A stretch of 34,457 nt of DNA from a virus (lineage: Duplodnaviria; Heunggongvirae; Uroviricota; Caudoviricetes), in IMG/VR virus record IMGVR_UViG_2908572912_000001, positions 1 through 34,457 of that record; one strand, written 5' to 3'. Within the stretch, counting starts at the first letter, position 1. The number at the start of each line of letters is the position of its first letter. Position numbers and translations under genes: made by a program. Under the pieces are notes generated by a model. That model saw only the letters and a list, made by a program, of their open reading frames with translations. It was not told where the DNA came from and ran no database searches. This document shows positions 16,834 through 32,927 of this stretch, piece after piece.

Positions 16834-17916
16834 ATGAAAAAATTAACAGTGGCAATTTCTGCTGTAGCTGCATCAGTACTGATGGCGATGTCTGCTCAGG
16901 CAGCTGAAATTTATAATAAAGACAGTAACAAGCTGGATCTATATGGGAAAGTTAATGCCAAGCACTACTTCTCCTCTAATGATGCAGATGATGGTGATAC
17001 TACTTATGCCCGTCTTGGCTTCAAAGGTGAAACCCAAATCAACGATCAACTGACTGGTTTCGGTCAGTGGGAATATGAATTCAAAGGCAACCGCGCTGAA
17101 TCTCAAGGCTCCTCCAAAGACAAAACCCGTCTTGCATTTGCAGGCCTGAAATTCGGGGACTACGGCTCAATCGATTACGGCCGTAACTACGGTGTAGCAT
17201 ATGACATCGGTGCGTGGACTGACGTTCTGCCAGAATTCGGTGGCGATACCTGGACCCAAACAGATGTGTTCATGACTGGTCGCACCACTGGTGTTGCAAC
17301 TTATCGTAACAACGACTTCTTTGGTCTGGTTGATGGTCTGAACTTTGCTGCTCAGTATCAGGGTAAAAATGACCGCACTGACGTAACTGAAGCTAATGGT
17401 GATGGTTTCGGTTTCTCCACTACTTATGAGTATGAAGGATTCGGTGTAGGTGCAACCTATGCTAAATCTGACCGCACTAATAATCAGGTTATCTACGGTA
17501 ACAACAGCCTGAATGCATCTGGTCAAAATGCTGAAGTATGGGCAGCTGGTCTGAAATATGATGCGAACAACATCTATCTGGCCACCACCTATTCTGAAAC
17601 CCAGAACATGACTGTTTTTGGTAATAACCATATTGCCAACAAAGCACAAAACTTCGAAGCTGTTGCACAATATCAGTTCGACTTCGGCCTGCGTCCATCC
17701 GTTGCTTACCTGCATTCTAAAGGAAAAGACTTGGGTGTTTGGGGTGATCAGGACCTGGTTGAATATGTTGATGTAGGTGCAACCTATTACTTCAACAAAA
17801 ATATGTCCACTTTTGTTGACTACAAAATCAACCTGATTGATAAGAGCGATTTCACGAAAGCATCTGGCGTTGCTACCGATGATATCGTTGCTGTAGGTAT
17901 GGTTTACCAGTTCTAA
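16834..17916 (+). CDS. nmpC: OmpC/OmpD-family general porin NmpC, apparently intact (signal peptide, C-terminal ...VYQF)
   Basis: 360 aa, signal peptide [23 protein letters not shown], porin beta-barrel signature and terminal Phe; lies between Q and the lysis cassette on the opposite strand, as in DLP12. Confidence 0.9.
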
Positions 17917-19360: not shown

Positions 19361-19523
19361 GATTCCTCCTTGCTGCCAGTCGCAACCATTTTTTATCAAC
19401 CAGGCTAGCGGTATATCCGAGCAGTGTTGGTATTTCGGATGGCTTCAGCTCAGGTTTACGCTTACGACGATTTGGTACTTTGTAGATGTGTCCGTTCATG
19501 ACACGAATAAGCGGTGTAGCCAT
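19353..19523 (-). CDS. ninE: NinE
   Basis: [56 protein letters not shown] (56 aa) = NinE family. Confidence 0.8.
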   Translation of the reverse strand: MATPLIRVMNGHIYKVPNRRKRKPELKPSEIPTLLGYTASLVDKKWLRLAARRNHG

Positions 19524-19978
19524 TACGCCTCCTGCTTGTCGCGCAGCAGCTGAAACTCGCAGCTCTGTGGAATAGTCAGGTGGCAACCAATATTCATCGC
19601 CCAGGCTTCAACCTTACACAGGAAGACATACATCTCTCCGGTATCAAGATCGGAGGTATGGCGTAACGACTGGATAGTGGTGATATCACCGGTTACGACA
19701 TCAACCAGGTCTTTGGTTTCATAACCGAGATATGTGTGTTTGAGAGCATCTTTTACCCAAGCTGGAGTGGCGAACGTTTTACCCTTGCTGATGAGGTATT
19801 CACTGATTTCGCTGTACCACATGTGGCTGAGTGCATTCTGGGAAAGACTGCGTCTCTCGCGCCACGGTTTAAGCACCATGCGAAAGCATTTGCCGTCCTC
19901 CAGATAAGGCTGGATCTGCCGACCAATAGCGGTGAAGTTACCGCGATGCAGTTTGATGCCATCTTGTGGGAAGTTCAC
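19523..19978 (-). CDS. ybcN: YbcN-like nin-region protein (NinB/Orf-family position)
   Basis: 151 aa, recognised as DLP12 YbcN from memory. Confidence 0.75.
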
Positions 19979-19984
19979 GCTTCA

Positions 19985-20150
19985 CCTCCGCAGAGATCAA
20001 ACGCTGGATGCAAAAAAACGCAGGTGCATTTCTGCATCTGTGGCAAGGCGAGGAGTTCAACTTGTGGTCGCATATAATTTCCCAATCATATGCGCAGAAG
20101 TCACCGCAGGGTGTTCAGGCCAACGGTGACGGTATTATTGCTTATTGATT
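19985..20150. repeat. Copy A of a ~150-bp imperfect direct repeat (blocks AGGTGCATTTCTGCATCTGTG ... GCGCAGAAGTCACCG..GTTCAGGC ... AT-rich)
   Basis: Hand alignment with 21470-21625: 21/21 identical first block, second block with hairpin whose loop contains GTTCAGG in both copies. Confidence 0.6.
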
Positions 20151-20400
20151 ATGATTTTTCAATTTCATCAATAACCTTGTGATAGACAATACCAGAAAGG
20201 CCAACAGACAGTGGATGTTCATGAAATATTGGCTCATTTGCATAAACCCAATGCCCGACAAATTCTTCTGGGCTTGATATGTATAACTCACGAAGAAAAT
20301 GGAGATCCCTCTCTACAACTAATTTCGTATCGTCCAAGAGCGCTGCATTTACGCTAGTTTTATGGCTGTGCATTAATTTACATTTGGTGAAGGACATCAT
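20149..20400 (-). CDS. Hypothetical protein (83 aa)
   Basis: ORF only; AT-rich, no recognisable motif. Confidence 0.4.
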   Translation of the reverse strand: MMSFTKCKLMHSHKTSVNAALLDDTKLVVERDLHFLRELYISSPEEFVGHWVYANEPIFHEHPLSVGLSGIVYHKVIDEIEKS

Positions 20401-20459
20401 GGCAAAAGCTCCTTTTTCTTATGAATCCATATGTTAGCTAAATTGGAGAGACACAGTAG

Positions 20460-21074
20460 CTAACGTTGTTTAATAACATTCTGACGCAAATGTGGCAATA
20501 CTCGACTCCACTTATCATCCTGCCACGGCTGGAATTTTACATGTGCCGTTTCTCTGGCGAGGATTGCTCGCGCTCTGGTGAGTATCTGGGGATATTCTTG
20601 CTCGATGGAAGTGAAGCGACCAGCTTCACGATGCTCCGCAACCTGAAGAAGAGGAGTAACGTTCTGGCAGGCGGTTAACATCGCATCCCCAGCTCGCCAT
20701 AACCAAGCAAGTGTGCAAAGTTCGTTATCAGTGAATTGTTTTGTGATCGGGGATTGTTGAACTTCTCGATCGAGAATATCCAGAACCCAGCGGCGGAACT
20801 CTTTGGCTACAGGAGTTCGTGCAAACATGGCGATCAAATGGGCTCCGCGAAGGCTAAATACTCGAGACTCCTGCATTCCACGAGGGGTGGTCACTTTGAC
20901 CACCCTTGTCATCATATCTGTAAATTCATCTGAGTGACGGGAGTAAATGCGCTGAACTGCTTTATCGTCCGCATATTCCAGAGCTAAACCAACTTCAGTG
21001 GCAGTAAGCCAAATTCTGTTATTGTGGCAAATTGGGGTAAACGTCGTTTTGTGGAATGCTAATTGAGTAGTCAT
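20460..21074 (-). CDS. Bro-N domain DNA-binding protein (Roi/antirepressor-like)
   Basis: N-terminal ...ICHNNRIWLTATEVGLALEYADDKAVQRIYSRHSDEF... fits the Bro-N fold pattern; sits in the nin region like HK022 roi. Confidence 0.65.
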   Translation of the reverse strand: MTTQLAFHKTTFTPICHNNRIWLTATEVGLALEYADDKAVQRIYSRHSDEFTDMMTRVVKVTTPRGMQESRVFSLRGAHLIAMFARTPVAKEFRRWVLDILDREVQQSPITKQFTDNELCTLAWLWRAGDAMLTACQNVTPLLQVAEHREAGRFTSIEQEYPQILTRARAILARETAHVKFQPWQDDKWSRVLPHLRQNVIKQR

Positions 21075-21228
21075 AGTTTCACCTCATCAGGTTAACCATC
21101 ACCACCAACGACGCCAATCGACTGGTGGTGAACTGTGCAAGGTTGGCGTAACCGGCTACTCAAATCCGGCGCTCCCGAAGAAGCCCTCACACAGCCCACC
21201 ATAATTTGGGCGTAGCCGTGCTTAGCGC

Positions 21229-21252
21229 ATAAAAAAACCGCTTAACGCGGTA
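21229..21252 (-). terminator. Rho-independent terminator on the minus strand after the NACHT cassette (accgc gttaa gcggt + T7)
   Basis: 5-bp GC stem with a 7-nt T-run on the minus strand. Confidence 0.4.
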
Positions 21253-21469
21253 TGCGTTGAGTAGTATTCCGGGACGCCAATCCCGTGTGCCGATTTTGCG
21301 GCAACGCACAGAATATATCCCCAGATAAATCATGTCGTCAACCCCAGTAAATGGACACCATGATGATCACAGCCATAGCTGCTACAACAGTTACAACTAC
21401 CTCAGGCCAAAACATAACGATTTCCATATCACCTTTAGCCGCCAGACGAATAGAGACTCCCAATTCTGG

Positions 21470-21625
21470 CTGTCGAAGTAAAACACCGAATGTAAAAAAT
21501 CGTAGGTGCATTTCTGCATCTGTGAATGGAGAAGATAGGTTGGATTGTATGTGCGCATAAACGTCCCCGTTTAGCGCAGAAGTCACCGGAGTTGTTCAGG
21601 CTCCGGCTTATTAATATTGCCTACT
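21470..21625. repeat. Copy B of the ~150-bp direct repeat; includes hairpin ccggag ttgttcagg ctccgg
   Basis: See copy A. Confidence 0.6.
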
Positions 21626-21685
21626 TACAATTAATTTTTCAACTGTTAGAAACTTATAATTAGCTGTCTCTTTGTAACTATCAAT

Positions 21686-23581
21686 TTAATTATTTTTCTT
21701 TAACTTGAAATTTCTTCCCATTGCTAGTGTTCTTCGAAGATTCGAATCATAAGCTGGTTGATAATATCTATCATAAAAATCCTTAATTGTCTGATGGTAA
21801 GTATCCAGCATCAAACCATAAAACCCCATGACCTTAAGATAATCCACCAAGGGAAATAAATAATCATCAGTCTGAACATCAGTATCAATATTATTTTTTT
21901 GTTTTTTAACTTCAAATTTGTATAAGTTTAACTCACCCTTATCCATCGTGCATGAAAAAAGGTCGTCAAAAATCAAATCAATTTTTGTCATAGGAACTCG
22001 TTCTTTTCCAGACATTATAGGTAGAATATCAATACCTAAGAGCGAACCTAATACAAAGTCGTAATGAAGCGAAATCACTGAGTCATTCGATGTCGAGTTG
22101 CCTTTGATAAATACTCTACTTAGTGCCGAGTCAAAAACATTCTCAACTCTCTCTCTCGTCATGTTTGCGACATCTACAACCCCCATATCACGAGAAGCTT
22201 TTATTGTGATTTCATCTATAAATGCTTTGGAATCTAGTGAATGTAAAAACAACATGAAGTTATCTAACTGTTCAGAGCATTTAATAGCCACCATAAGATT
22301 TTCGTATATATCTTTTTTATACTCAATCGGTAAATTTGCTACCGCAAAAGCAGCATAAAATTCTTGCACTGATTTATGCAGAAAAACATACCTATTATTT
22401 CCCTCAGGTTGGATAAGGCAAGTTATCTCAATAAGATCATCTATAAAGTTTGATGCATCTTCTTTAAGATAACCTTCTGTTTCAATAGCATCTTCAGCAT
22501 ATCTAAGCAACTCCTCTCCCCAAAACTCAAATTTCTCCTCAATCAGTGCGTTATAGCAAATAGCTGAAAAACACAATTTAGCTTTTTCACCAATAATGTT
22601 TGATTTTTTCTCGCGCGTATATACTTTTATTTTATCATGCCTTGCATATAAGGTGTCAAAGAGGCTTCGATAAAACTCTATTATATTATTTGGAATATCA
22701 TTCATATAAGGATAACAATAATACAAAAGAGTAACTAAAATTGGATTGCAAATAGTTCCCTCAAGTTCTTCTTTATCACATAGTAAATCCGCCAAGACTT
22801 TAAACGAGGCATCACTACTTGAGAATCTGTCATTTTTCGATAAAGAATGAAGAATACAAATCTTATCAGAAATATTTAGCTTATCTATAAAAATATTATA
22901 CACATCAGTAGTATAACATATATCTGTATTTGGTCTCGTTGTTGCGATAATTGGTGTGTTAAAATGATAATGAATGTTTTTTATTTCATTCATCATCATA
23001 GTTCGCTCTTCATGTTTAACCTCATCAAATCCATCCAACATTAAAACGACTCTTTGGGATTGCAGTAATATTTTCAAGCTATCCTCTGAACACCCCACAC
23101 CAAATGAATTAAGAATGTCTGCCAGATAAGCAATAATATTTGCATTCTTCACCCTTCTTAATTCAATAAAAAAAGGCATCCGTTCTGATTTTTTTATTTC
23201 CTCGCTAAACAACTTGCGTAAAATAGTACTTTTCCCTTGCCCCGCTATACCGACTATATTTACAATACCATGAAATGGTAAAGTGACCCCATCTTTTATA
23301 ACGACCTTGTCTTTATTAGATGCCACCTCAACAGTTAACGGATAATAAATATCATCTAAAAAAATATCATAATCAGCGTTGTGCAAAGTTCTCATTTTCA
23401 GAGATGGTAGCACATGCTTTCTTAAATAATTTTCTCTTCCGAGGGGATCATTTAATTGTTCGAGTATAACCTTGCCTTCATCTAGGTCCCTAGCCCAAGG
23501 TTTAGAGAGCAATACTTCTGTTATTTTTTCCGCAGCTTTTCCTACTGTGCTATTAATAATAGTCGCAAGAAACTCATCCAT
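21686..23581 (-). CDS. NACHT-family STAND NTPase (bacterial NLR-like), candidate antiphage protein; ~110-aa N-terminal region, central NACHT, ~350-aa C-terminal region
   Basis: Walker A GIAGQGKST, NACHT-type Walker B VVLMLDGFDEV, sensor-1-like IIATTRP; GC ~30 percent island. Start placed at ATG (MDEFL...) preceded by GGTGA; track alt-start gives 23638. Confidence 0.8.
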   Translation of the reverse strand: MDEFLATIINSTVGKAAEKITEVLLSKPWARDLDEGKVILEQLNDPLGRENYLRKHVLPSLKMRTLHNADYDIFLDDIYYPLTVEVASNKDKVVIKDGVTLPFHGIVNIVGIAGQGKSTILRKLFSEEIKKSERMPFFIELRRVKNANIIAYLADILNSFGVGCSEDSLKILLQSQRVVLMLDGFDEVKHEERTMMMNEIKNIHYHFNTPIIATTRPNTDICYTTDVYNIFIDKLNISDKICILHSLSKNDRFSSSDASFKVLADLLCDKEELEGTICNPILVTLLYYCYPYMNDIPNNIIEFYRSLFDTLYARHDKIKVYTREKKSNIIGEKAKLCFSAICYNALIEEKFEFWGEELLRYAEDAIETEGYLKEDASNFIDDLIEITCLIQPEGNNRYVFLHKSVQEFYAAFAVANLPIEYKKDIYENLMVAIKCSEQLDNFMLFLHSLDSKAFIDEITIKASRDMGVVDVANMTRERVENVFDSALSRVFIKGNSTSNDSVISLHYDFVLGSLLGIDILPIMSGKERVPMTKIDLIFDDLFSCTMDKGELNLYKFEVKKQKNNIDTDVQTDDYLFPLVDYLKVMGFYGLMLDTYHQTIKDFYDRYYQPAYDSNLRRTLAMGRNFKLKKNN

Positions 23582-23968
23582 TTTTTCACCACATTCATTA
23601 ACCAATACGTGGTGCATTCTTACAAGACTCAGTAACAATTGTCAATCATAGGTTTTCGCATGATTGCAAAACGCCATAAACAATTGTAGCACCATAATTT
23701 TAAACACTATAAATATACAACCTTCCTACAAGCATTCAGTACATCGCTTAATCACAGGGCTTGAATATATAGTAAGGAATCGATATTAATCACCTCATCT
23801 ACTTTAAACATCTTACACACCTATAATTTATAATAGTCAACACGAGGTCATCATATTAAACATGCAATTACAAACATTCATTTTTATATAAATTTTCATG
23901 ATTTAACCGTAGAGCGACGGTAATAAATTTCATATACAAGGATTTAAGCTCCCATACGTTTTCTATTA

Positions 23969-24786: not shown

Positions 24787-24925
24787 TTTTCATTACATAG
24801 CGGGCATCAATTCCGCCACCGTGTAGCCAACGCCAAACTGTGGGTTGGGCTACACCGCATAGATCTGCCAGTCGTTTTTGACTACCTGTAATACTGATTG
24901 CGAGTTGAATGGTTTGATTTGTCAT
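24677..24925 (-). CDS. Cro-like HTH protein; the native C-terminus is uncertain because the frame runs through the P start region
   Basis: MTNQTIQLAISITGSQKRLADLCGVAQPTVWRWLHGG has a Cro/CI-type HTH; divergent from cI across an operator region. Confidence 0.5.
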   Translation of the reverse strand: MTNQTIQLAISITGSQKRLADLCGVAQPTVWRWLHGGGIDARYVMKIVSATGGKIKPADTAGSADHQRCVQTVTGNFPCEPG

Positions 24926-25035
24926 TATCAATTCCTATTGGTATTGCAATGAATAAATAATAGCAATGCGTATTAATCCAAGCAATAGCAAAACGTGTTT
25001 TGACCATCAATACGCAAGCGTATAAATTAAAACTT
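24926..25035. promoter_or_regulatory. Immunity-region divergent promoters and operators: pR candidate on minus strand (-35 TTGCTT 24980-24985, 17-bp spacer, -10 TATTAT 24957-24962); pRM candidate on plus strand (-35 TTGACC 24999-25004, -10 TATAAA 25021-25026) giving near-leaderless cI
   Basis: Consensus-like sigma70 hexamers with 16-17 bp spacing; spacers contain TAGCAAT/GCAATAGCAA and TACGCAAGCGTA motifs. Confidence 0.55.
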
Positions 25036-25728
25036 ATGAAAAAAGAAACTCTTGCTGATCGCTTAAACCTAGCGATGGAACAATCTGGAATGTCTCAAGG
25101 CGCTCTTGCAAAGGCGTCTGGCGTAGCTCAACCCACAATCTGGAGACTGACAAGCGGCAATGCGCGCGGCTCAACAAAAATTGTTGAAATAGCTAATGCA
25201 TTGGGTGTTCGAACAGAATGGCTCTCTTCAGGCATAGGCCCGATGAGAAATGACGGTCAACAATCAGGGAAGCCTGCTGTCAGCCATTCCAAATACTTCA
25301 AAATTGACGTTCTTGATATAGAAGTCAGTGCCGGGCCGGGTGTAATCAACCGTGAGTTTGTAGAAGTTCTACGCTCGGTTGAATACTCGTTTGACGATGC
25401 TCGTCACATGTTCGATGGCAGGAAGGCGGAAAATATCCGCATCATTAACGTGCGTGGTGACAGCATGTCAGGAACGATCGAACCAGGTGATCTGCTGTTC
25501 GTTGATATCACGGTTAAATCTTTCGACGGTGATGGTATCTATGCGTTTCTGTATGACGACACCGCCCATGTAAAACGCCTGCAAATGATGAAGGATAAGC
25601 TGCTGGTTATCTCTGATAACAAGAGCTACTCACCGTGGGACCCGATCGAGAAAGACGAGATGAACCGCGTGTTCATCTTCGGGAAAGTCATCGGGAGCAT
25701 GCCGCAGACATATAGAAAGCATGGGTAG
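25036..25728 (+). CDS. cI: CI-type prophage repressor (N-terminal HTH, C-terminal LexA/S24 autopeptidase-like domain)
   Basis: HTH MSQGALAKASGVAQPTIWRL; C-terminal VRGDSMSGTIEPGDLLFVD and HVKRL (Ser/Lys dyad pattern). Track alt-start at 25000. Confidence 0.85.
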   Translation: MKKETLADRLNLAMEQSGMSQGALAKASGVAQPTIWRLTSGNARGSTKIVEIANALGVRTEWLSSGIGPMRNDGQQSGKPAVSHSKYFKIDVLDIEVSAGPGVINREFVEVLRSVEYSFDDARHMFDGRKAENIRIINVRGDSMSGTIEPGDLLFVDITVKSFDGDGIYAFLYDDTAHVKRLQMMKDKLLVISDNKSYSPWDPIEKDEMNRVFIFGKVIGSMPQTYRKHG

Positions 25729-31713: not shown

Positions 31714-32604
31714 TCAGGCTGCCAGATCATCGTTTCCGATGGAAGCATAATAAGCTTTTTCTGCTTCTGCCGGAGGAGTATGGCCCAGCCTTTCCAGCAA
31801 TCGTCGATTGTTATACCAGTCCACCCACGTGAGTGTGGCCAGTTCCACTTCTGCACGGTTTTTCCAGCTCTTACGGTGTATTACCTCCGCTTTGTAAAGG
31901 CCATTGATGCTCTCCGCCATCGCGTTGTCATACGAGTCGCCTGTACTTCCTGTTGATGCCAGTAATCCGGCTTCCTTAAGCCGCTGTGTGTAGGCCAGCG
32001 ATACATACTGAGAACCTTTATCACTGTGATGGACTGTGCCGGACGGTCGACGGGCCCATAACGCCTGCTCCAGAGCATCCAGCACAAATGTCGTTTCCAT
32101 AGACGATGAGACCCGCCACCCCACGATGTATCCGGCAAACACATCAATGATGAACGCCACATAGACGACCCCCTGCCATGTGCTGACGTAAGTAAAATCA
32201 GCCACCCACAACTGGTCAGGACGTTCTGCCACGAACTGACGGTTTACGCGGTCGCCTGCGACAACGGCTTTCCGGCTGATGGTCGTACGGACCTTTTTAC
32301 CCCGGAGAACACCGGCAAGTCCCATAACCGCCATGAGACGTGCCACAGTGCATCTGGCCACTCTGATACCTTCCCGTAACAACTGACGCCAGACTTTACG
32401 CACACCGTATACCTTGTGATTTTCATCGTATACGCGCTGTATCTCTTTCTTCAGCCAGTCATCGCGCTGCGCACGGGCACTGCGTTTATCCGGATGATGT
32501 CGCTGTTGCTGACAGTGGTAATACGTTGACGGGGCAATATGCAGTTCGCTGCATAGCGGTCCGACCCCGTACTGCTCACGCAGCTTATCCAGCAGTGGCA
32601 TCAT
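31714..32604 (-). CDS. IS629-like transposase OrfB (DDE)
   Basis: 296 aa with DDE integrase-core motifs ([19 protein letters not shown]). Confidence 0.9.
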
Positions 32605-32927
32605 TTTTTCCAGAGGCGGTCGAACTCCGCCTTCGCAAAATAAGCGGAAGCCTGGCGAAGGATATCGTTACTGCGGCGCAGTTCACGATTTTCACGTTCC
32701 AGCTCTTTCAGACGCTGACGTTCAGCGGTGGTGAGCCCGCCATCACCGCCTCCGGTATCCCGCTCATGCTGGCGTACCCAGACACGCAGAGTCTCCGGTG
32801 TACAGCCAATCTTTGGGGCAATGGAACAAATTGCCGCCCACTGTGAGTCATATTCGCCCTGACTTTCCAGAACCATACGAATCGCCCTCTGACGGACTTC
32901 GGGGGAAAAACGAGTATTTTTAGTCAT
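32601..32927 (-). CDS. IS629-like transposase OrfA
   Basis: [57 protein letters not shown]... as remembered for IS629/IS1203 OrfA. Confidence 0.9.

Follow-up and report, generated by a model that had tools for sequence, protein, structure and literature searches.

Two copies of a probable promoter-leader cassette with four covarying hairpins flank an antirepressor module in a lambdoid phage genome

Genes at the Locus

The window analyzed in this study is the whole 34,457-nt stretch of phage DNA. The repeats function on the minus strand, which is the direction of the early-right operon in this phage-82/DLP12-like prophage. The genes and RNAs beside and between the two repeat copies are as follows.

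19523..19978, minus strand: ninB/ybcN, 151 aa (phrog_72, NinB/Orf), the first gene of the copy 1 operon
20149..20400, minus strand: 83-aa ORF (phrog_9613), the last gene of the bracketed module
20460..21074, minus strand: antirepressor of 204 aa with Bro-N and P22AR C-terminal domain (PHROG anti-repressor Ant families)
21121..21303, minus strand: C4 antisense RNA (21121-21206) and isrK (21231-21303), both in the bracketed module (Rfam)
21338..21427, minus strand: 29-aa hydrophobic ORF MEIVMFWPEVVVTVVAAMAVIIMVSIYWG (phrog_4612), the gene directly served by copy 2

The operon under copy 1 comprises ninB, ninE, ybcO, rusA, ylcG, and Q. Copy 2 heads a small peptide (the 29-aa ORF), isrK, C4, and the antirepressor. 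An earlier note on this DNA had placed the 83-aa ORF and the Bro-N protein between the copies and the NACHT gene next to copy 2, and this arrangement was confirmed; the bracketed module also contains the isrK and C4 RNA genes and the 29-aa ORF. The note was right that a Bro-N module is bracketed, but the module it called Roi-like is better named a P1 immI-like isrK-C4-antirepressor unit.

The cmscan scores were 60.7 bits for isrK and 72.4 bits for C4, both exceeding the gathering scores, and the isrK match overlaps the c4-a1b1 family. At the gathering threshold, cmscan reported only isrK, C4, and ALIL in the window, all outside the repeats. Neither repeat matched any of the 4227 Rfam models, including isrK (RF01394) and C4 (RF01695), and a permissive Rfam scan of 19900-21700 up to E = 10 also gave nothing in either of them.

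The Repeat Pair

The repeat search of the window showed a direct repeat of 44 nt (19999-20042 and 21481-21524, 86% identical) and another of 18 nt (20092-20109 and 21574-21591, 94% identical), and the two share an offset of 1482 bp. The window contains exactly two instances of the 17-mer core CAGATGCAGAAATGCAC, compared with an expectation of 0.12 matches when up to 3 mismatches are allowed. Both copies were also matched by a homologue-derived profile (E = 5.6e-53 and 4.1e-39). Local alignment of copy 1 (20162-19999) with copy 2 (21642-21481) gave 128 identical columns out of 175 and spanned from the -35 hexamer to beyond the U tract. These results confirm that the repeat is real and far exceeds chance. 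Two copies had been claimed before, and this stands, but the element is slightly longer on the promoter side than first stated.

An identical 21-bp block (plus strand AGGTGCATTTCTGCATCTGTG) is located at 20022-20042 and 21504-21524. A hairpin whose loop is conserved (GTTCAGG on the plus strand, CCUGAAC when transcribed) and whose stems differ is located at 20100-20130 and 21585-21607. Both had been noticed from the letters and were found as described. Each copy is a promoter-leader cassette of approximately 190 bp, and a small ORF (ylcH/orf33) passes through the 21-bp block. The parts of the cassettes, with H1 to H4 denoting the hairpins in the order of transcription, are as follows.

Copy 1:
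20134..20162, minus strand: promoter-like site, TTGAAA (20162-20157), 17-nt spacer, AATAAT (20139-20134); 10/12 consensus matches
20100..20130, minus strand: H1, the 5′-terminal hairpin, GUCACCGUUGG / CCUGAACAC / CCUGCGGUGAC; from covariation
20069..20094, minus strand: H2, CGCAUAUGAUU-GGGA-AAUUAUAUGCG; predicted at -12.9 kcal/mol
20012..20043, minus strand: H3, core CAGAUGCA-GAAA-UGCACCUG (20040-20021), outer pairs, and UUUUUUU (20018-20012); from covariation
19977..20004, minus strand: H4, GCGUUUGAUCUC-UGCG-GAGGUGAAGCGU; from folding and covariation
19975..20073, minus strand: leader ORF of 32 codons, orf33/YlcH homologue; from the sequence and from PGAP in an identical genome

Copy 2:
21613..21642, minus strand: promoter-like site, TTGAAA (21642-21637), 17/18-nt spacer, CAATAT/AATATT; 9/12 consensus matches
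21585..21607, minus strand: H1, GCCGGAG / CCUGAACAA / CUCCGGU, with a shorter stem; from folding
21553..21577, minus strand: H2, GCGCUAAACG-GGGA-CGUUUA(U)GCGC, with the leader AUG at 21558-21556; from folding
21494..21525, minus strand: H3, CAGAUGCA-GAAA-UGCACCUA (21522-21503), and UUUUUU (21499-21494); from model R2
21397..21558, minus strand: leader ORF of 53 codons; from ORF analysis

Distribution of the Element

Homology showed that the element is orf33 of phage 82 and ylcH of E. coli K-12. It was detected in 3,027 of 5,426 complete E. coli genomes (56%) and also in Klebsiella, Enterobacter, and Salmonella phages; phages of at least four genera carry it. A single copy is the rule, always at one functional position: in HK639, phi80, HK225, and the Klebsiella and Enterobacter phages, the element always lies immediately upstream of the gene at the ninB position. 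Most loci were retrieved by an exact 17-mer match, which in part guarantees that the block does not vary among them; unbiased support for its invariance comes only from the second copies (0–1 mismatch), the phages retrieved by BLAST, and the Klebsiella clade.

In some Klebsiella and Salmonella leaders, the AUG of H2 is fused directly to a DUF1367 gene. The 5′ half can evidently do without H3, H4, and the leader ORF. Scanning genome contigs with GACTTCTGCGCN{5,9}GGGA gave only chance matches in unrelated phyla among the matches listed.

Uniqueness to one genome, absence of covariation, and trivial duplication of coding sequence were each checked as grounds for setting the repeat aside, and none of them holds.

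Promoter

The conserved region begins at a near-consensus -35/-10 pair, and homology between the copies ends just upstream of the -35. The upstream flanks are unrelated between copies and often end in a terminator. At the 5′ edge of the element stand hexamers of sigma-70 type at a spacing of 16–18 bp. Approximately 100 other copies have the canonical TTGATT-17-CATAAT, and the copy 1 site is at the same relative position. The copy 1 promoter overlaps the end of the 83-aa ORF, and its predicted start (approximately 20127-20130) is at the base of H1. The promoter region of copy 2 is homologous to that of copy 1 in the local alignment; the idea that the NACHT island had replaced the copy 2 promoter was rejected on this ground.

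In the Gifsy-1 homologue, the predicted start lies 1606 nt upstream of antQ. This agrees with the mapped start of the antQ operon, which has been placed "1,600 bases upstream of antQ" (PMC4825925, citing Kroger 2012). The support for the promoter comes from homology with Gifsy-1; the leader there contains H1 and H2 but neither orf33 nor H3. Sequence and comparison together point to a sigma-70 promoter with a predicted transcription start at the foot of H1. A separate dyad, TGATT-N6-AATCA, covers the -35 and the spacer. An FNR site at this promoter dyad was considered and rejected: TTGAT-N8-ATCAA has the wrong spacing compared with the N4 of the FNR consensus.

Hairpins of the Leader

H1 has a variable stem and a conserved loop, YYUGRRC (YUNR-type). 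It is helix 1 of alignment A6, in which 9 of its 10 pairs changed on both sides and 95% of the cells are paired. H2 is helix 2 of the same alignment; it has at least 8 stem haplotypes around a GGGA loop, double changes in 8 of 10 pairs, and 99% of the cells paired. In copy 1, the Shine-Dalgarno sequence is within the tetraloop of H2 and the leader AUG (20073-20071) is within its 3′ arm. Model R1 matched copy 2 at 21546-21609 (E = 1.1e-09).

H3 of copy 1 is the 21-bp block (20022-20042). It has a GAAA tetraloop and two conserved A.C mismatches, and a U-rich tract follows. Copy 2 has lost the outer C-G pair of H3, and model R2 matched this copy at 21463-21528 (E = 1.3e-07). The Klebsiella clade has three compensatory pairs in H3 (CCGAUGGC-GAAA-GCCACCGG), so that the pairing is kept though 4 of 7 encoded residues differ; as all of this covariation was seen in a single clade, the number of independent events behind it is small. 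H4 is helix 2 of alignment A7 and has double changes in 10 of 12 pairs. The predicted pairing of H4 in copy 1 sequesters the ninB Shine-Dalgarno sequence (GGAGG, 19989-19985) and start codon. With a stability of -10 to -19 kcal/mol, H4 covers the downstream Shine-Dalgarno sequence and start in all three sequence types.

For H1 and H2, 97.1% of the cells are paired, compared with 79.1% in shuffles and 24–52% in slid controls, and 17 of 20 pairs changed on both sides. For H3 and H4, 94.0% are paired, compared with 84.4% in shuffles, and 13 of 21 pairs changed on both sides. A caveat on these pairing figures is that Infernal had fitted the alignments to the structure. None of 500 shuffles reached the observed covariation score, either for H1 and H2 or for H3 and H4. 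On the evidence of the alignments, the element appears to be a structured leader in which all four hairpins covary. The earlier proposal of a regulatory RNA element is strongly supported, as H1 and three more hairpins show compensatory changes over dozens of haplotypes.

The MAFFT alignments A1 (whole leaders) and A2 (H2 alone) had misaligned the variable stems, and RNAalifold missed H2; they were replaced by two Infernal models built from ungapped seeds. The R1 search used a threshold of 0.001, and at E ≤ 0.01 approximately ten opposite-strand matches came in. The Klebsiella-type 5′ halves were missed by R1 and were analyzed by eye and with RNAfold. A substitution in L254 does not convert the A.C mismatch into an A-U pair but disrupts the U-A pair next to it, and it was dropped as support. 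In E. coli-type copies, the alternative fold H3′ (AUGCAGAAA with UUUCUGCAU), which pairs the U tract with GCAGAAA, has greater stability than H3. It was rejected as a conserved structure: it is uncompensated in the Klebsiella clade and broken by several single changes.

H3 and its U tract may form a terminator. The hairpin is weak (-7 to -12 kcal/mol, with the two A.C mismatches). Every one of the 109 copies has at least 4 U in the 6 nt after H3, and 93% have 5 or more in 8 nt. A simple terminator scan flagged only copy 1, with a stem other than H3. The HK639 record annotates several terminators, none of them at this element, and the U run of the K-12 copy is broken.

The promoter and the terminator-like hairpin together would bound an RNA of approximately 115 nt. 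The element could accordingly be read as chiefly the gene of a trans-acting sRNA, running from the promoter to H3 and the U tract and having an IsrK-like dual function. On this reading, the repeat pair would consist of paralogous sRNA genes, with the H1 loop or the single-stranded ACAAUCNRAAC as the seed. The UG of the H1 loop never varies, and the loop conforms to the YUNR U-turn motif, which is typical of RNA–RNA recognition loops. In addition, the adjacent IsrK acts both as a short trans RNA and as the 5′ part of an mRNA (PMC4825925). However, no complementary target was seen, as the complement of the H1 loop (TGTTCAGG) gives scattered and unremarkable matches in the window. H2, H4, and the overlap of the leader stop with the next start are built around ribosome sites, which only a cis role explains. 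The DUF1367-type leaders have no terminator altogether, and neither an Rfam family nor a published sRNA was found at the position of the element. We consider an sRNA gene, with either choice of seed, unlikely.

Leader ORF

The leader ORF has 31–33 codons and is open in all full copies. Its stop overlaps the start of the next gene as AUGA or GUGA in 121 of 129 copies; in copy 1, the UGA stop overlaps the GUG start of ninB (GUGA). In copy 2, approximately 24 codons match orf33, after which the sequence is divergent, and the ORF overlaps the start of the 29-aa ORF by 28 nt. Some upstream (ant-type) copies have an in-frame stop or have lost the start codon, which indicates that leader translation is not always maintained in copies of this type.

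The conserved feature might be the small protein YlcH/Orf33 itself, with the block conserved as the code for QMQKCTC. The ORF is annotated by PGAP as well as in K-12 and phage 82, virtually every copy keeps it open, and the M, K, and T of the block are retained in the Klebsiella clade. The pattern of variation argues against this. Variable sites are evenly spread over the codon positions (9/11/8, 7/8/7, and 11/10/10), with no excess at the third position, and non-synonymous alternatives exceed synonymous ones, with no signature of purifying selection. The nucleotide motif ACAAUCNRAAC is retained in three different reading frames. The N-terminal and C-terminal thirds each exist in at least three unrelated versions, and YlcH has no family in Pfam, NCBIfam, or PHROGs. 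The changes within the block compensate RNA pairing yet alter four of the seven residues. A conserved YlcH protein is therefore very unlikely, and the codon comparison suggests a leader ORF that is kept open without amino acid constraint. The same result rules out a trivial coding duplication: the block is within an ORF, but this ORF evolves without amino acid constraint.

Duplication and Recombination

The 5′ types v1–v4 and K and the 3′ types a, b, and c occur around the block in combinations that violate the four-gamete rule. The E. coli strains ANT and DAM have one hybrid copy and are exactly 1482 bp shorter, with the crossover inside the block. The locus thus has a conserved patch, assorting flanks, and natural recombinants, as a mosaic boundary does. 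Eight other loci have two copies, and at seven of them isrK, C4, and ant or a Rha-type gene follow the upstream copy. The duplication probably arose via modular recombination, with the invariant H3 block as the crossover point; if so, recombination between the copies could also remove the antirepressor module.

A module boundary that promotes cassette exchange had been suggested for the repeats. This stands as an evolutionary consequence, seen in the reassortment of the halves and the hybrid strains, but the repeats are not primarily a boundary signal. Mere recombination linkers, that is, mosaic-boundary homology with no function of its own, would fit the reassortment, the single hybrid copy of ANT and DAM, and the decay of some upstream copies. 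They would not explain why the pairing of four hairpins is preserved through compensatory changes, why the promoter hexamers, GGGA loop, reading frame, and stop/start overlap are preserved across genera, or why single copies are the rule and always take one functional position. We regard bare linkers as extremely unlikely.

There is also hardly any likelihood that H1 is a DNA operator or that H1, H2, or H3 form a nut- or put-like antitermination site. In favor of these readings, the -10 is closely followed by an inverted repeat, which the phage 82 record calls a "possible regulator-binding site"; the loop of H3 is of the GNRA type and the boxB loop fold is GNRA-like; and the element is carried by HK639, which uses put RNA and not an N protein. 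Against an operator, the arms of H1 vary while its loop is conserved, the opposite of a dimeric operator, and the dyad over the -35 and spacer is a better candidate. Against a nut or put site, no boxA (CGCUCUUA-like) is visible in the alignments, the H3 loop is a tetraloop and not a pentaloop, and phages carry this block whether or not they have N. The element is approximately 5 kb from the cro region, while a nut site would be expected just downstream of PL or PR. A ribosome site is the center of H2, and put RNAs have none.

Proposed Mechanism

The repeats are probably cis-acting promoter-leader cassettes of lambdoid phages (the ylcH/orf33 cassette), in which the downstream operon depends on translation of the leader. 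A ribosome would open H2, follow the RNA polymerase, and keep H3 unformed, with the result that no attenuation would occur at the U tract. It would next melt H4 and reinitiate at the overlapping start. When the leader is not translated, the transcript would end at or after H3, as an RNA of approximately 115 nt, or would stay translationally locked by H4. Copy 1 would in this way gate ninB-ninE-ybcO-rusA-ylcG-Q, and copy 2 would gate the 29-aa peptide ORF leading into isrK-C4-antirepressor.

The antirepressor unit and the nin-Q operon begin with the same cassette, so one factor would gate both outputs. We speculate that a single trans-acting factor (a host or phage RNA-binding protein or a small RNA) recognizes shared parts of the cassette and gates the antirepressor and nin-Q co-ordinately. 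Candidate targets would be two loops, YYUGRRC in H1 and GGGA in H2 (the latter a CsrA-like GGA-in-loop site), together with H3 and its conserved A.C mismatches. This idea, targets included, is quite unlikely to be correct.

Comparison with Known Systems

The closest known system is isrK-orf45-anrP of Gifsy-1, which was experimentally shown to act via a leader ORF with conserved nucleotides and variable amino acids (PMC4825925, Hershko-Shalev et al. 2016). It has AUGA coupling, helices that sequester ribosome-binding sites, and a short terminated as well as a long read-through RNA (PMC4825925). Like this system, the cassette is located in a prophage early region and has a structured promoter-proximal RNA, which in Gifsy-1 ends in an intrinsic terminator. 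Both have a leader ORF with an unconstrained peptide, an AUGA overlap with the next gene, and ribosome sites in helices (predicted for the cassette), and the cassette would likewise give short terminated and long read-through transcripts. A homologue of the Gifsy-1 unit, isrK-C4-ant, lies between the two repeats in the window. However, the two have no sequence or Rfam relationship, their hairpin layouts differ, and the terminator-like hairpin of the cassette is inside the leader ORF. In Gifsy-1 the short RNA also acts in trans, whereas a cis role is proposed for the cassette, and the cassette serves ninB to Q, or the 29-aa peptide.

The proposed attenuation resembles that of pyrBI. In the E. 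coli pyrBI operon, a ribosome translating the leader ORF through the attenuator prevents formation of the terminator. The cassette also has a short leader ORF that crosses a hairpin and U tract, a coupled ribosome would suppress termination, and the peptide is irrelevant. Unlike pyrBI, it has no evident nucleotide-sensing pause tract, it adds H2 and H4, and its H3 terminator is putative.

In mok/hok of plasmid R1, the downstream ribosome site is inaccessible and an overlapping upstream frame must be translated. In the cassette, the ribosome site of the next gene would similarly be locked, and the point of regulation would be the initiation region of the overlapping upstream frame. Unlike mok/hok, the cassette has no toxin, no identified antisense RNA, and no long-range 5′–3′ pairing, and it serves recombination and antitermination genes.

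The cassette is at the same map position as lambda tR2, which lies immediately upstream of ninB, between the replication genes and Q, and which has no promoter, leader ORF, or coupling hairpin. Lambda was absent from the BLAST matches to the element, and no sequence similarity to tR2 was found. As in PR′-6S RNA-tR′, a terminator-like signal comes soon after a promoter, and the product would be a short RNA wherever this signal is not overridden. Unlike in PR′/tR′, no Q or N site was identified in the cassette.

The phage 82 record (Mahdi et al. 1996; GenBank X92588) describes the same element and already marks a putative promoter (-35 and -10), the inverted repeat of H1, and orf33, which overlaps orf151. 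There, orf33 is entered as a gene for a protein and H1 as a site on the DNA, and H2–H4 are undescribed. The element was not found described in the literature on ylcH, ninB with sRNA, the ybcN start site, AgvB, AsxR, the Pas sRNAs, or HusR. We found no published description of H2–H4, the covariation, the unconstrained peptide, the duplication, or the role as a recombination joint.

Significance

In current annotation, the element appears only as a hypothetical protein of 33 residues and is missing from Rfam. The four covarying helices make it a well-supported candidate RNA family, and the reading of ylcH as a protein gene is corrected. The natural recombinant documents that a constrained RNA hairpin can double as a homology patch for gain and loss of the antirepressor module, and this exchange site adjoins a defence-gene hotspot. 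The model of attenuation and coupling is specific and can be tested with simple reporter constructs.

The cassette stands directly before the operon that ends in Q and, in this genome, also before the antirepressor module. Control of the cassette would therefore be control of leaky or alternative routes by which the prophage is induced and its late genes are expressed. Expression of AntQ, the last gene of the homologous operon, leads to growth arrest and cell death in Salmonella. If a single factor does act on both cassettes, it would gate the two outputs through which a lambdoid prophage becomes committed to induction and to expression of its late genes. Prophage induction would then be subject to a post-transcriptional checkpoint that acts independently of CI and LexA and is present in more than half of E. 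coli genomes.

Two Copies of a Promoter-Leader Element in the Window

The two copies of the repeat, copy 1 (20162-19999, minus strand) and copy 2 (21642-21481, minus strand), aligned with 73% identity from a -35-like hexamer to past a U tract. The earlier note had described copies of about 150 bp bracketing an 83-aa ORF and a Bro-N gene, and this repeat is real. Direct repeats of 44 nt (86%) and 18 nt (94%) are both spaced 1482 bp, the 17-mer core of the shared 21-bp block occurred exactly twice in the window against 0.12 expected, and a profile built from homologues matched both copies (E = 5.6e-53 and 4.1e-39). The hairpin with a conserved loop and differing stems was also found, at 20100-20130 and 21585-21607. 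The prophage is lambdoid, of the phage-82/DLP12 type, with its early-right operon on the minus strand, and the annotated gene order of an E. coli chromosome at 99.9% identity is identical. The features are as follows:

25000-25728, plus strand: cI-like repressor gene, followed in gene order by the cro-like and O-like genes
21686-23638, minus strand: NACHT gene, adjoining copy 2
21121-21341, minus strand: region of the isrK (RF01394) and C4 (RF01695) RNAs, between copy 2 and the antirepressor gene and upstream of the latter
20460-21074, minus strand: Bro-N/P22AR antirepressor gene
20149-20400, minus strand: 83-aa ORF, between the antirepressor gene and copy 1
19523-19978, minus strand: ninB/ybcN, after copy 1 and followed by rus and Q
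16834-17916, plus strand: OmpC/NmpC-like porin gene, just downstream of Q

The porin, a lysogenic-conversion-type cargo gene, lies past Q in DLP12 likewise. An ALIL pseudoknot (RF01497, 120 bits, 32530-32646, minus strand), the frameshift signal of IS3-family transposases, places an IS3-like element near that end of the window.

The element is not unique to this genome. BLAST hits lay in Enterobacter and Klebsiella phages, in several lambda-like hybrids and in phages 82, HK639, phi80 and HK225, and every time the gene in the ninB position came directly after the element. Of 5,426 complete E. coli genomes, 3,027 carry the element, each at 1-3 sites, and its K-12 counterpart is ylcH, which overlaps ybcN. 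A scan of IMG/VR with the 17-mer gave 120 loci, from which 107 distinct copies were aligned. The phage 82 record (1996) marks a putative -35 and -10, labels an inverted repeat 'possible regulator-binding site', and annotates orf33, the stop of which overlaps orf151.

Promoter

Conservation between copies starts exactly at a near-consensus promoter, TTGATT-17-CATAAT; the sequence upstream is unrelated between copies and often ends in a terminator hairpin. Gifsy-1 and four Klebsiella phages (L257-L260) have the promoter and the first two hairpins, H1 and H2, and Gifsy-1 has an identical H1 loop (CCUGAACAA). In these phages the H2 AUG starts a DUF1367 gene in the ninB position, and the leader ORF and hairpins H3 and H4 are absent. 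The cassette is therefore modular: the promoter, H1 and H2 make up its 5′ half, and the body of the leader ORF with H3 and H4 its 3′ half. The transcription start predicted in Gifsy-1 is 1606 nt upstream of antQ, and the published start of the antQ operon is '1,600 bases upstream of antQ' (PMC4825925). This gives indirect but specific support for a promoter that initiates at the base of H1 and transcribes the operon with Q as its last gene. A DNA-damage-related unit, a DinI homologue with a small ORF (1952-2518 of the Gifsy-1 locus L261), adjoins this antQ-operon promoter in Gifsy-1, directly upstream.

A dyad, TGATT-N6-AATCA, covers the -35 and spacer of the cassette promoter. The perfect dyad TTGAT-N8-ATCAA (TTGATTTGTCATTATCAA) occurs once in the window (24914-24931), over the start of the cro-like ORF, and a dyad of this type covers the -35 and spacer in 97 canonical cassette promoters of other phages (chance, about 1 per 1.2 Mb). 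These sites hint at one common DNA-binding regulator. Klebsiella-type cassettes (L252-L255, L257-L259) have a different promoter, TTGCTT-17-GATAAT, about 40 nt upstream of H1, whose own dyad between the hexamers (TATCCCC-N6-GGCGATA) is reminiscent of lambda-type repressor operators. In L256 and L260, an E. coli-type promoter is joined to Klebsiella-type hairpins.

Varying defence-like genes, often on the opposite strand, occupy the slot between ren and the cassette across phages: the NACHT gene in the window, PD-lambda-1/DUF4041 in PhiR26_1 and an examined E. coli genome (L263), and further, different genes in Klebsiella phages. The slot lies at 1191-2693 in L006, 690-2192 in L263, 1081-1875 in L248 and 1016-2044 in L252. 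It looks like a defence-gene hotspot with the cassette promoter as one border.

Conserved Hairpins

H1 begins at the predicted +1. Its stem has 49 haplotypes, almost all of which fold into 10-13 bp, and its loop is YYUGRRC(A) with invariant UG. The H2 stem, of 10-11 bp (-13 to -17 kcal/mol), occurs in 8 or more haplotypes; the invariant GGGA loop is the Shine-Dalgarno sequence, and the start codon of the small ORF (AUG or GUG) lies in the 3′ arm. H3, inside the leader ORF, is the 21-bp block itself, a weak hairpin (UCA)CAGAUGCA-GAAA-UGCACCUG(CGA) with two conserved A.C mismatches and then a U-rich tract. H4 is a hairpin of 10-13 bp (-10 to -19 kcal/mol) whose 3′ arm holds the GGAGG Shine-Dalgarno sequence and start codon of the next gene; three unrelated sequence versions share this one architecture.

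Covariation was tested with two covariance models made from ungapped seeds, with which the remaining copies were aligned. In these alignments, which are fitted to the structure model, 97.1% of cells in H1 and H2 (50 distinct rows) were standard pairs against 79.1% in shuffles (0/500); both sides had changed in 17 of 20 pairs, and slid controls gave 24-52%. For H3 and H4 (74 distinct rows), the values were 94.0% and 84.4% (0/500), with both sides changed in 13 of 21 pairs. Most loci had been retrieved through the 17-mer; the second copies in two-copy loci, which were not so selected, differed from it by 0-1 bases. The H3 covariation came from the Klebsiella clade, in which CCGAUGGC-GAAA-GCCACCGG replaces the E. 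coli-type arms: three compensatory pairs retain the loop and both A.C mismatches while the peptide stretch QMQKCTC becomes PMAKATG. An alternative fold of the E. coli-type block, GCAGAAA with the U tract, is more stable, yet it is uncompensated in the Klebsiella clade and is also broken by several single substitutions, and it was not taken as a conserved structure. The U run is broken in the K-12 copy, the HK639 record annotates no terminator at the cassette, and Rfam gave no match to the element, even with the limit relaxed to E = 10.

Leader ORF

The leader ORF has 31-33 codons, and in 121 of 129 copies its stop codon shares bases with the start of the next gene (ATGA or GTGA). The frame stays open and the peptide is unconserved. 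The N-terminal third exists in several versions (MRTYNPNSLL, MRPQSELLTL, VQTTIRTPFN and others), as does the C-terminal third (for example ALPLGGGV), and the nucleotide motif ACAAUCNRAAC is kept across three different reading frames. In three homogeneous groups, the variable sites at codon positions 1/2/3 numbered 9/11/8, 7/8/7 and 11/10/10, and non-synonymous to synonymous alternative codons were 21:14, 18:7 and 23:11. Pfam, NCBIfam and PHROGs contained no family for the peptide. From these sequence patterns we conclude that orf33/ylcH is a leader ORF whose translation, rather than its product, is probably maintained.

Exchange at the Block and the Antirepressor Module

The 5′ types (H2 and the N-terminal coding part) and 3′ types (H4) violate the four-gamete rule: type a was found with v1, v2, v3 and v4, type b with v1, v2 and v3, and type c with v2 and v4. 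This indicates exchanges in the block or close to it. In strains ANT and DAM, one element and then ybcN come after the same NACHT gene, in a region of 2819 bp against 4301 bp, exactly 1482 bp shorter. The 5′ half of their element is identical to copy 2 and the 3′ half is of the copy-1 type, with the switch within the block. This hybrid is what recombination between the repeats would be expected to produce, or the state preceding the reverse event. A few differences separate its 3′ half from copy 1; it therefore derived from a related prophage and not from that of the window. The proposal that the repeats are module boundaries promoting exchange is supported in part, by the reassortment and the hybrid, but the element is in the first place a promoter-leader cassette.

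A profile search of 128 lambdoid loci gave nine further two-copy cases, including the near-identical E. coli chromosome (L004). An Rfam scan covered the eight distinct loci. Seven of them have the downstream copy ahead of ybcN, and isrK and C4 no more than about 150 nt past the upstream copy, with an ant or Rha-type gene next. The upstream copies have a distinctive common 3′ end, diverging after the block with a leader frame that extends to 53 codons, and serve a conserved 29-aa hydrophobic ORF (window 21338-21427, minus strand) ending at isrK's own promoter. This promoter-like site is TTGACG-18-TATATT (21341-21312), with its -35 overlapping the ORF stop. The isrK match overlaps a match to the c4-a1b1 target family (37.8 bits, below the family threshold), a layout resembling P1 immI. 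Given this context and the upstream copies' own 3′ end, the unit between the repeats is an antirepressor module of the P1 immI kind, equipped with a cassette version of its own. Some of the upstream copies show decay (in-frame stop or lost start); both window copies are intact. The 29-aa ORF (MEIVMFWPEVVVTVVAAMAVIIMVSIYWG, Shine-Dalgarno AAAGGUGA), between copy 2 and isrK, matches phrog_4612 (function not assigned), occurs in all ant-type two-copy loci, with an in-frame stop in L115, and could encode a small membrane peptide or a toxin-like product.

Proposed Mechanism

The cassette combines promoter-like signals, four covarying hairpins, both ribosome sites within hairpins, an open and unconstrained leader frame, the stop/start overlap, and an in-frame hairpin with a U tract. 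The suggestion of a regulatory RNA is likewise supported in part, and strongly so by the covarying hairpins; how it acts is our inference. The controlled step would be initiation at H2. A ribosome that translates the leader and closely trails the polymerase would block H3 formation, so that no attenuation would occur at the U tract; it would next melt H4 and reinitiate at the overlapping start. If the leader is not translated, the outcome would be either a short transcript of about 115 nt or an mRNA locked against translation. During lytic growth, antiterminated PR transcription would bypass H3, and coupling would still be needed. Against the H3 model, the 5′ half works without H3 in the DUF1367-type leaders. 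H1 may stabilise the 5′ end and use its loop for recognition, and the GGA in the H2 loop is a candidate CsrA binding site. That one common trans-acting factor gates the antirepressor and Q operons jointly seems to us improbable.

The cassette has the same map position as lambda tR2. It belongs to none of the curated RNA and protein families tested (Rfam, Pfam, NCBIfam, PHROGs). Orf33, the putative promoter and the inverted repeat have been known since 1996. The structured-leader reading, the covariation and the lack of peptide constraint appear not to be described in the literature found, and likewise the duplication ahead of the antirepressor module and H3 as a crossover point. The cassette is widespread and structurally well supported. 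We infer that it would act in a manner resembling known leader-ORF devices: pyrBI-type attenuation, in that the leader-translating ribosome would stop the attenuator hairpin from forming, and mok/hok and orf45/anrP coupling, in that H4 would open and translation reinitiate at the overlapping start.
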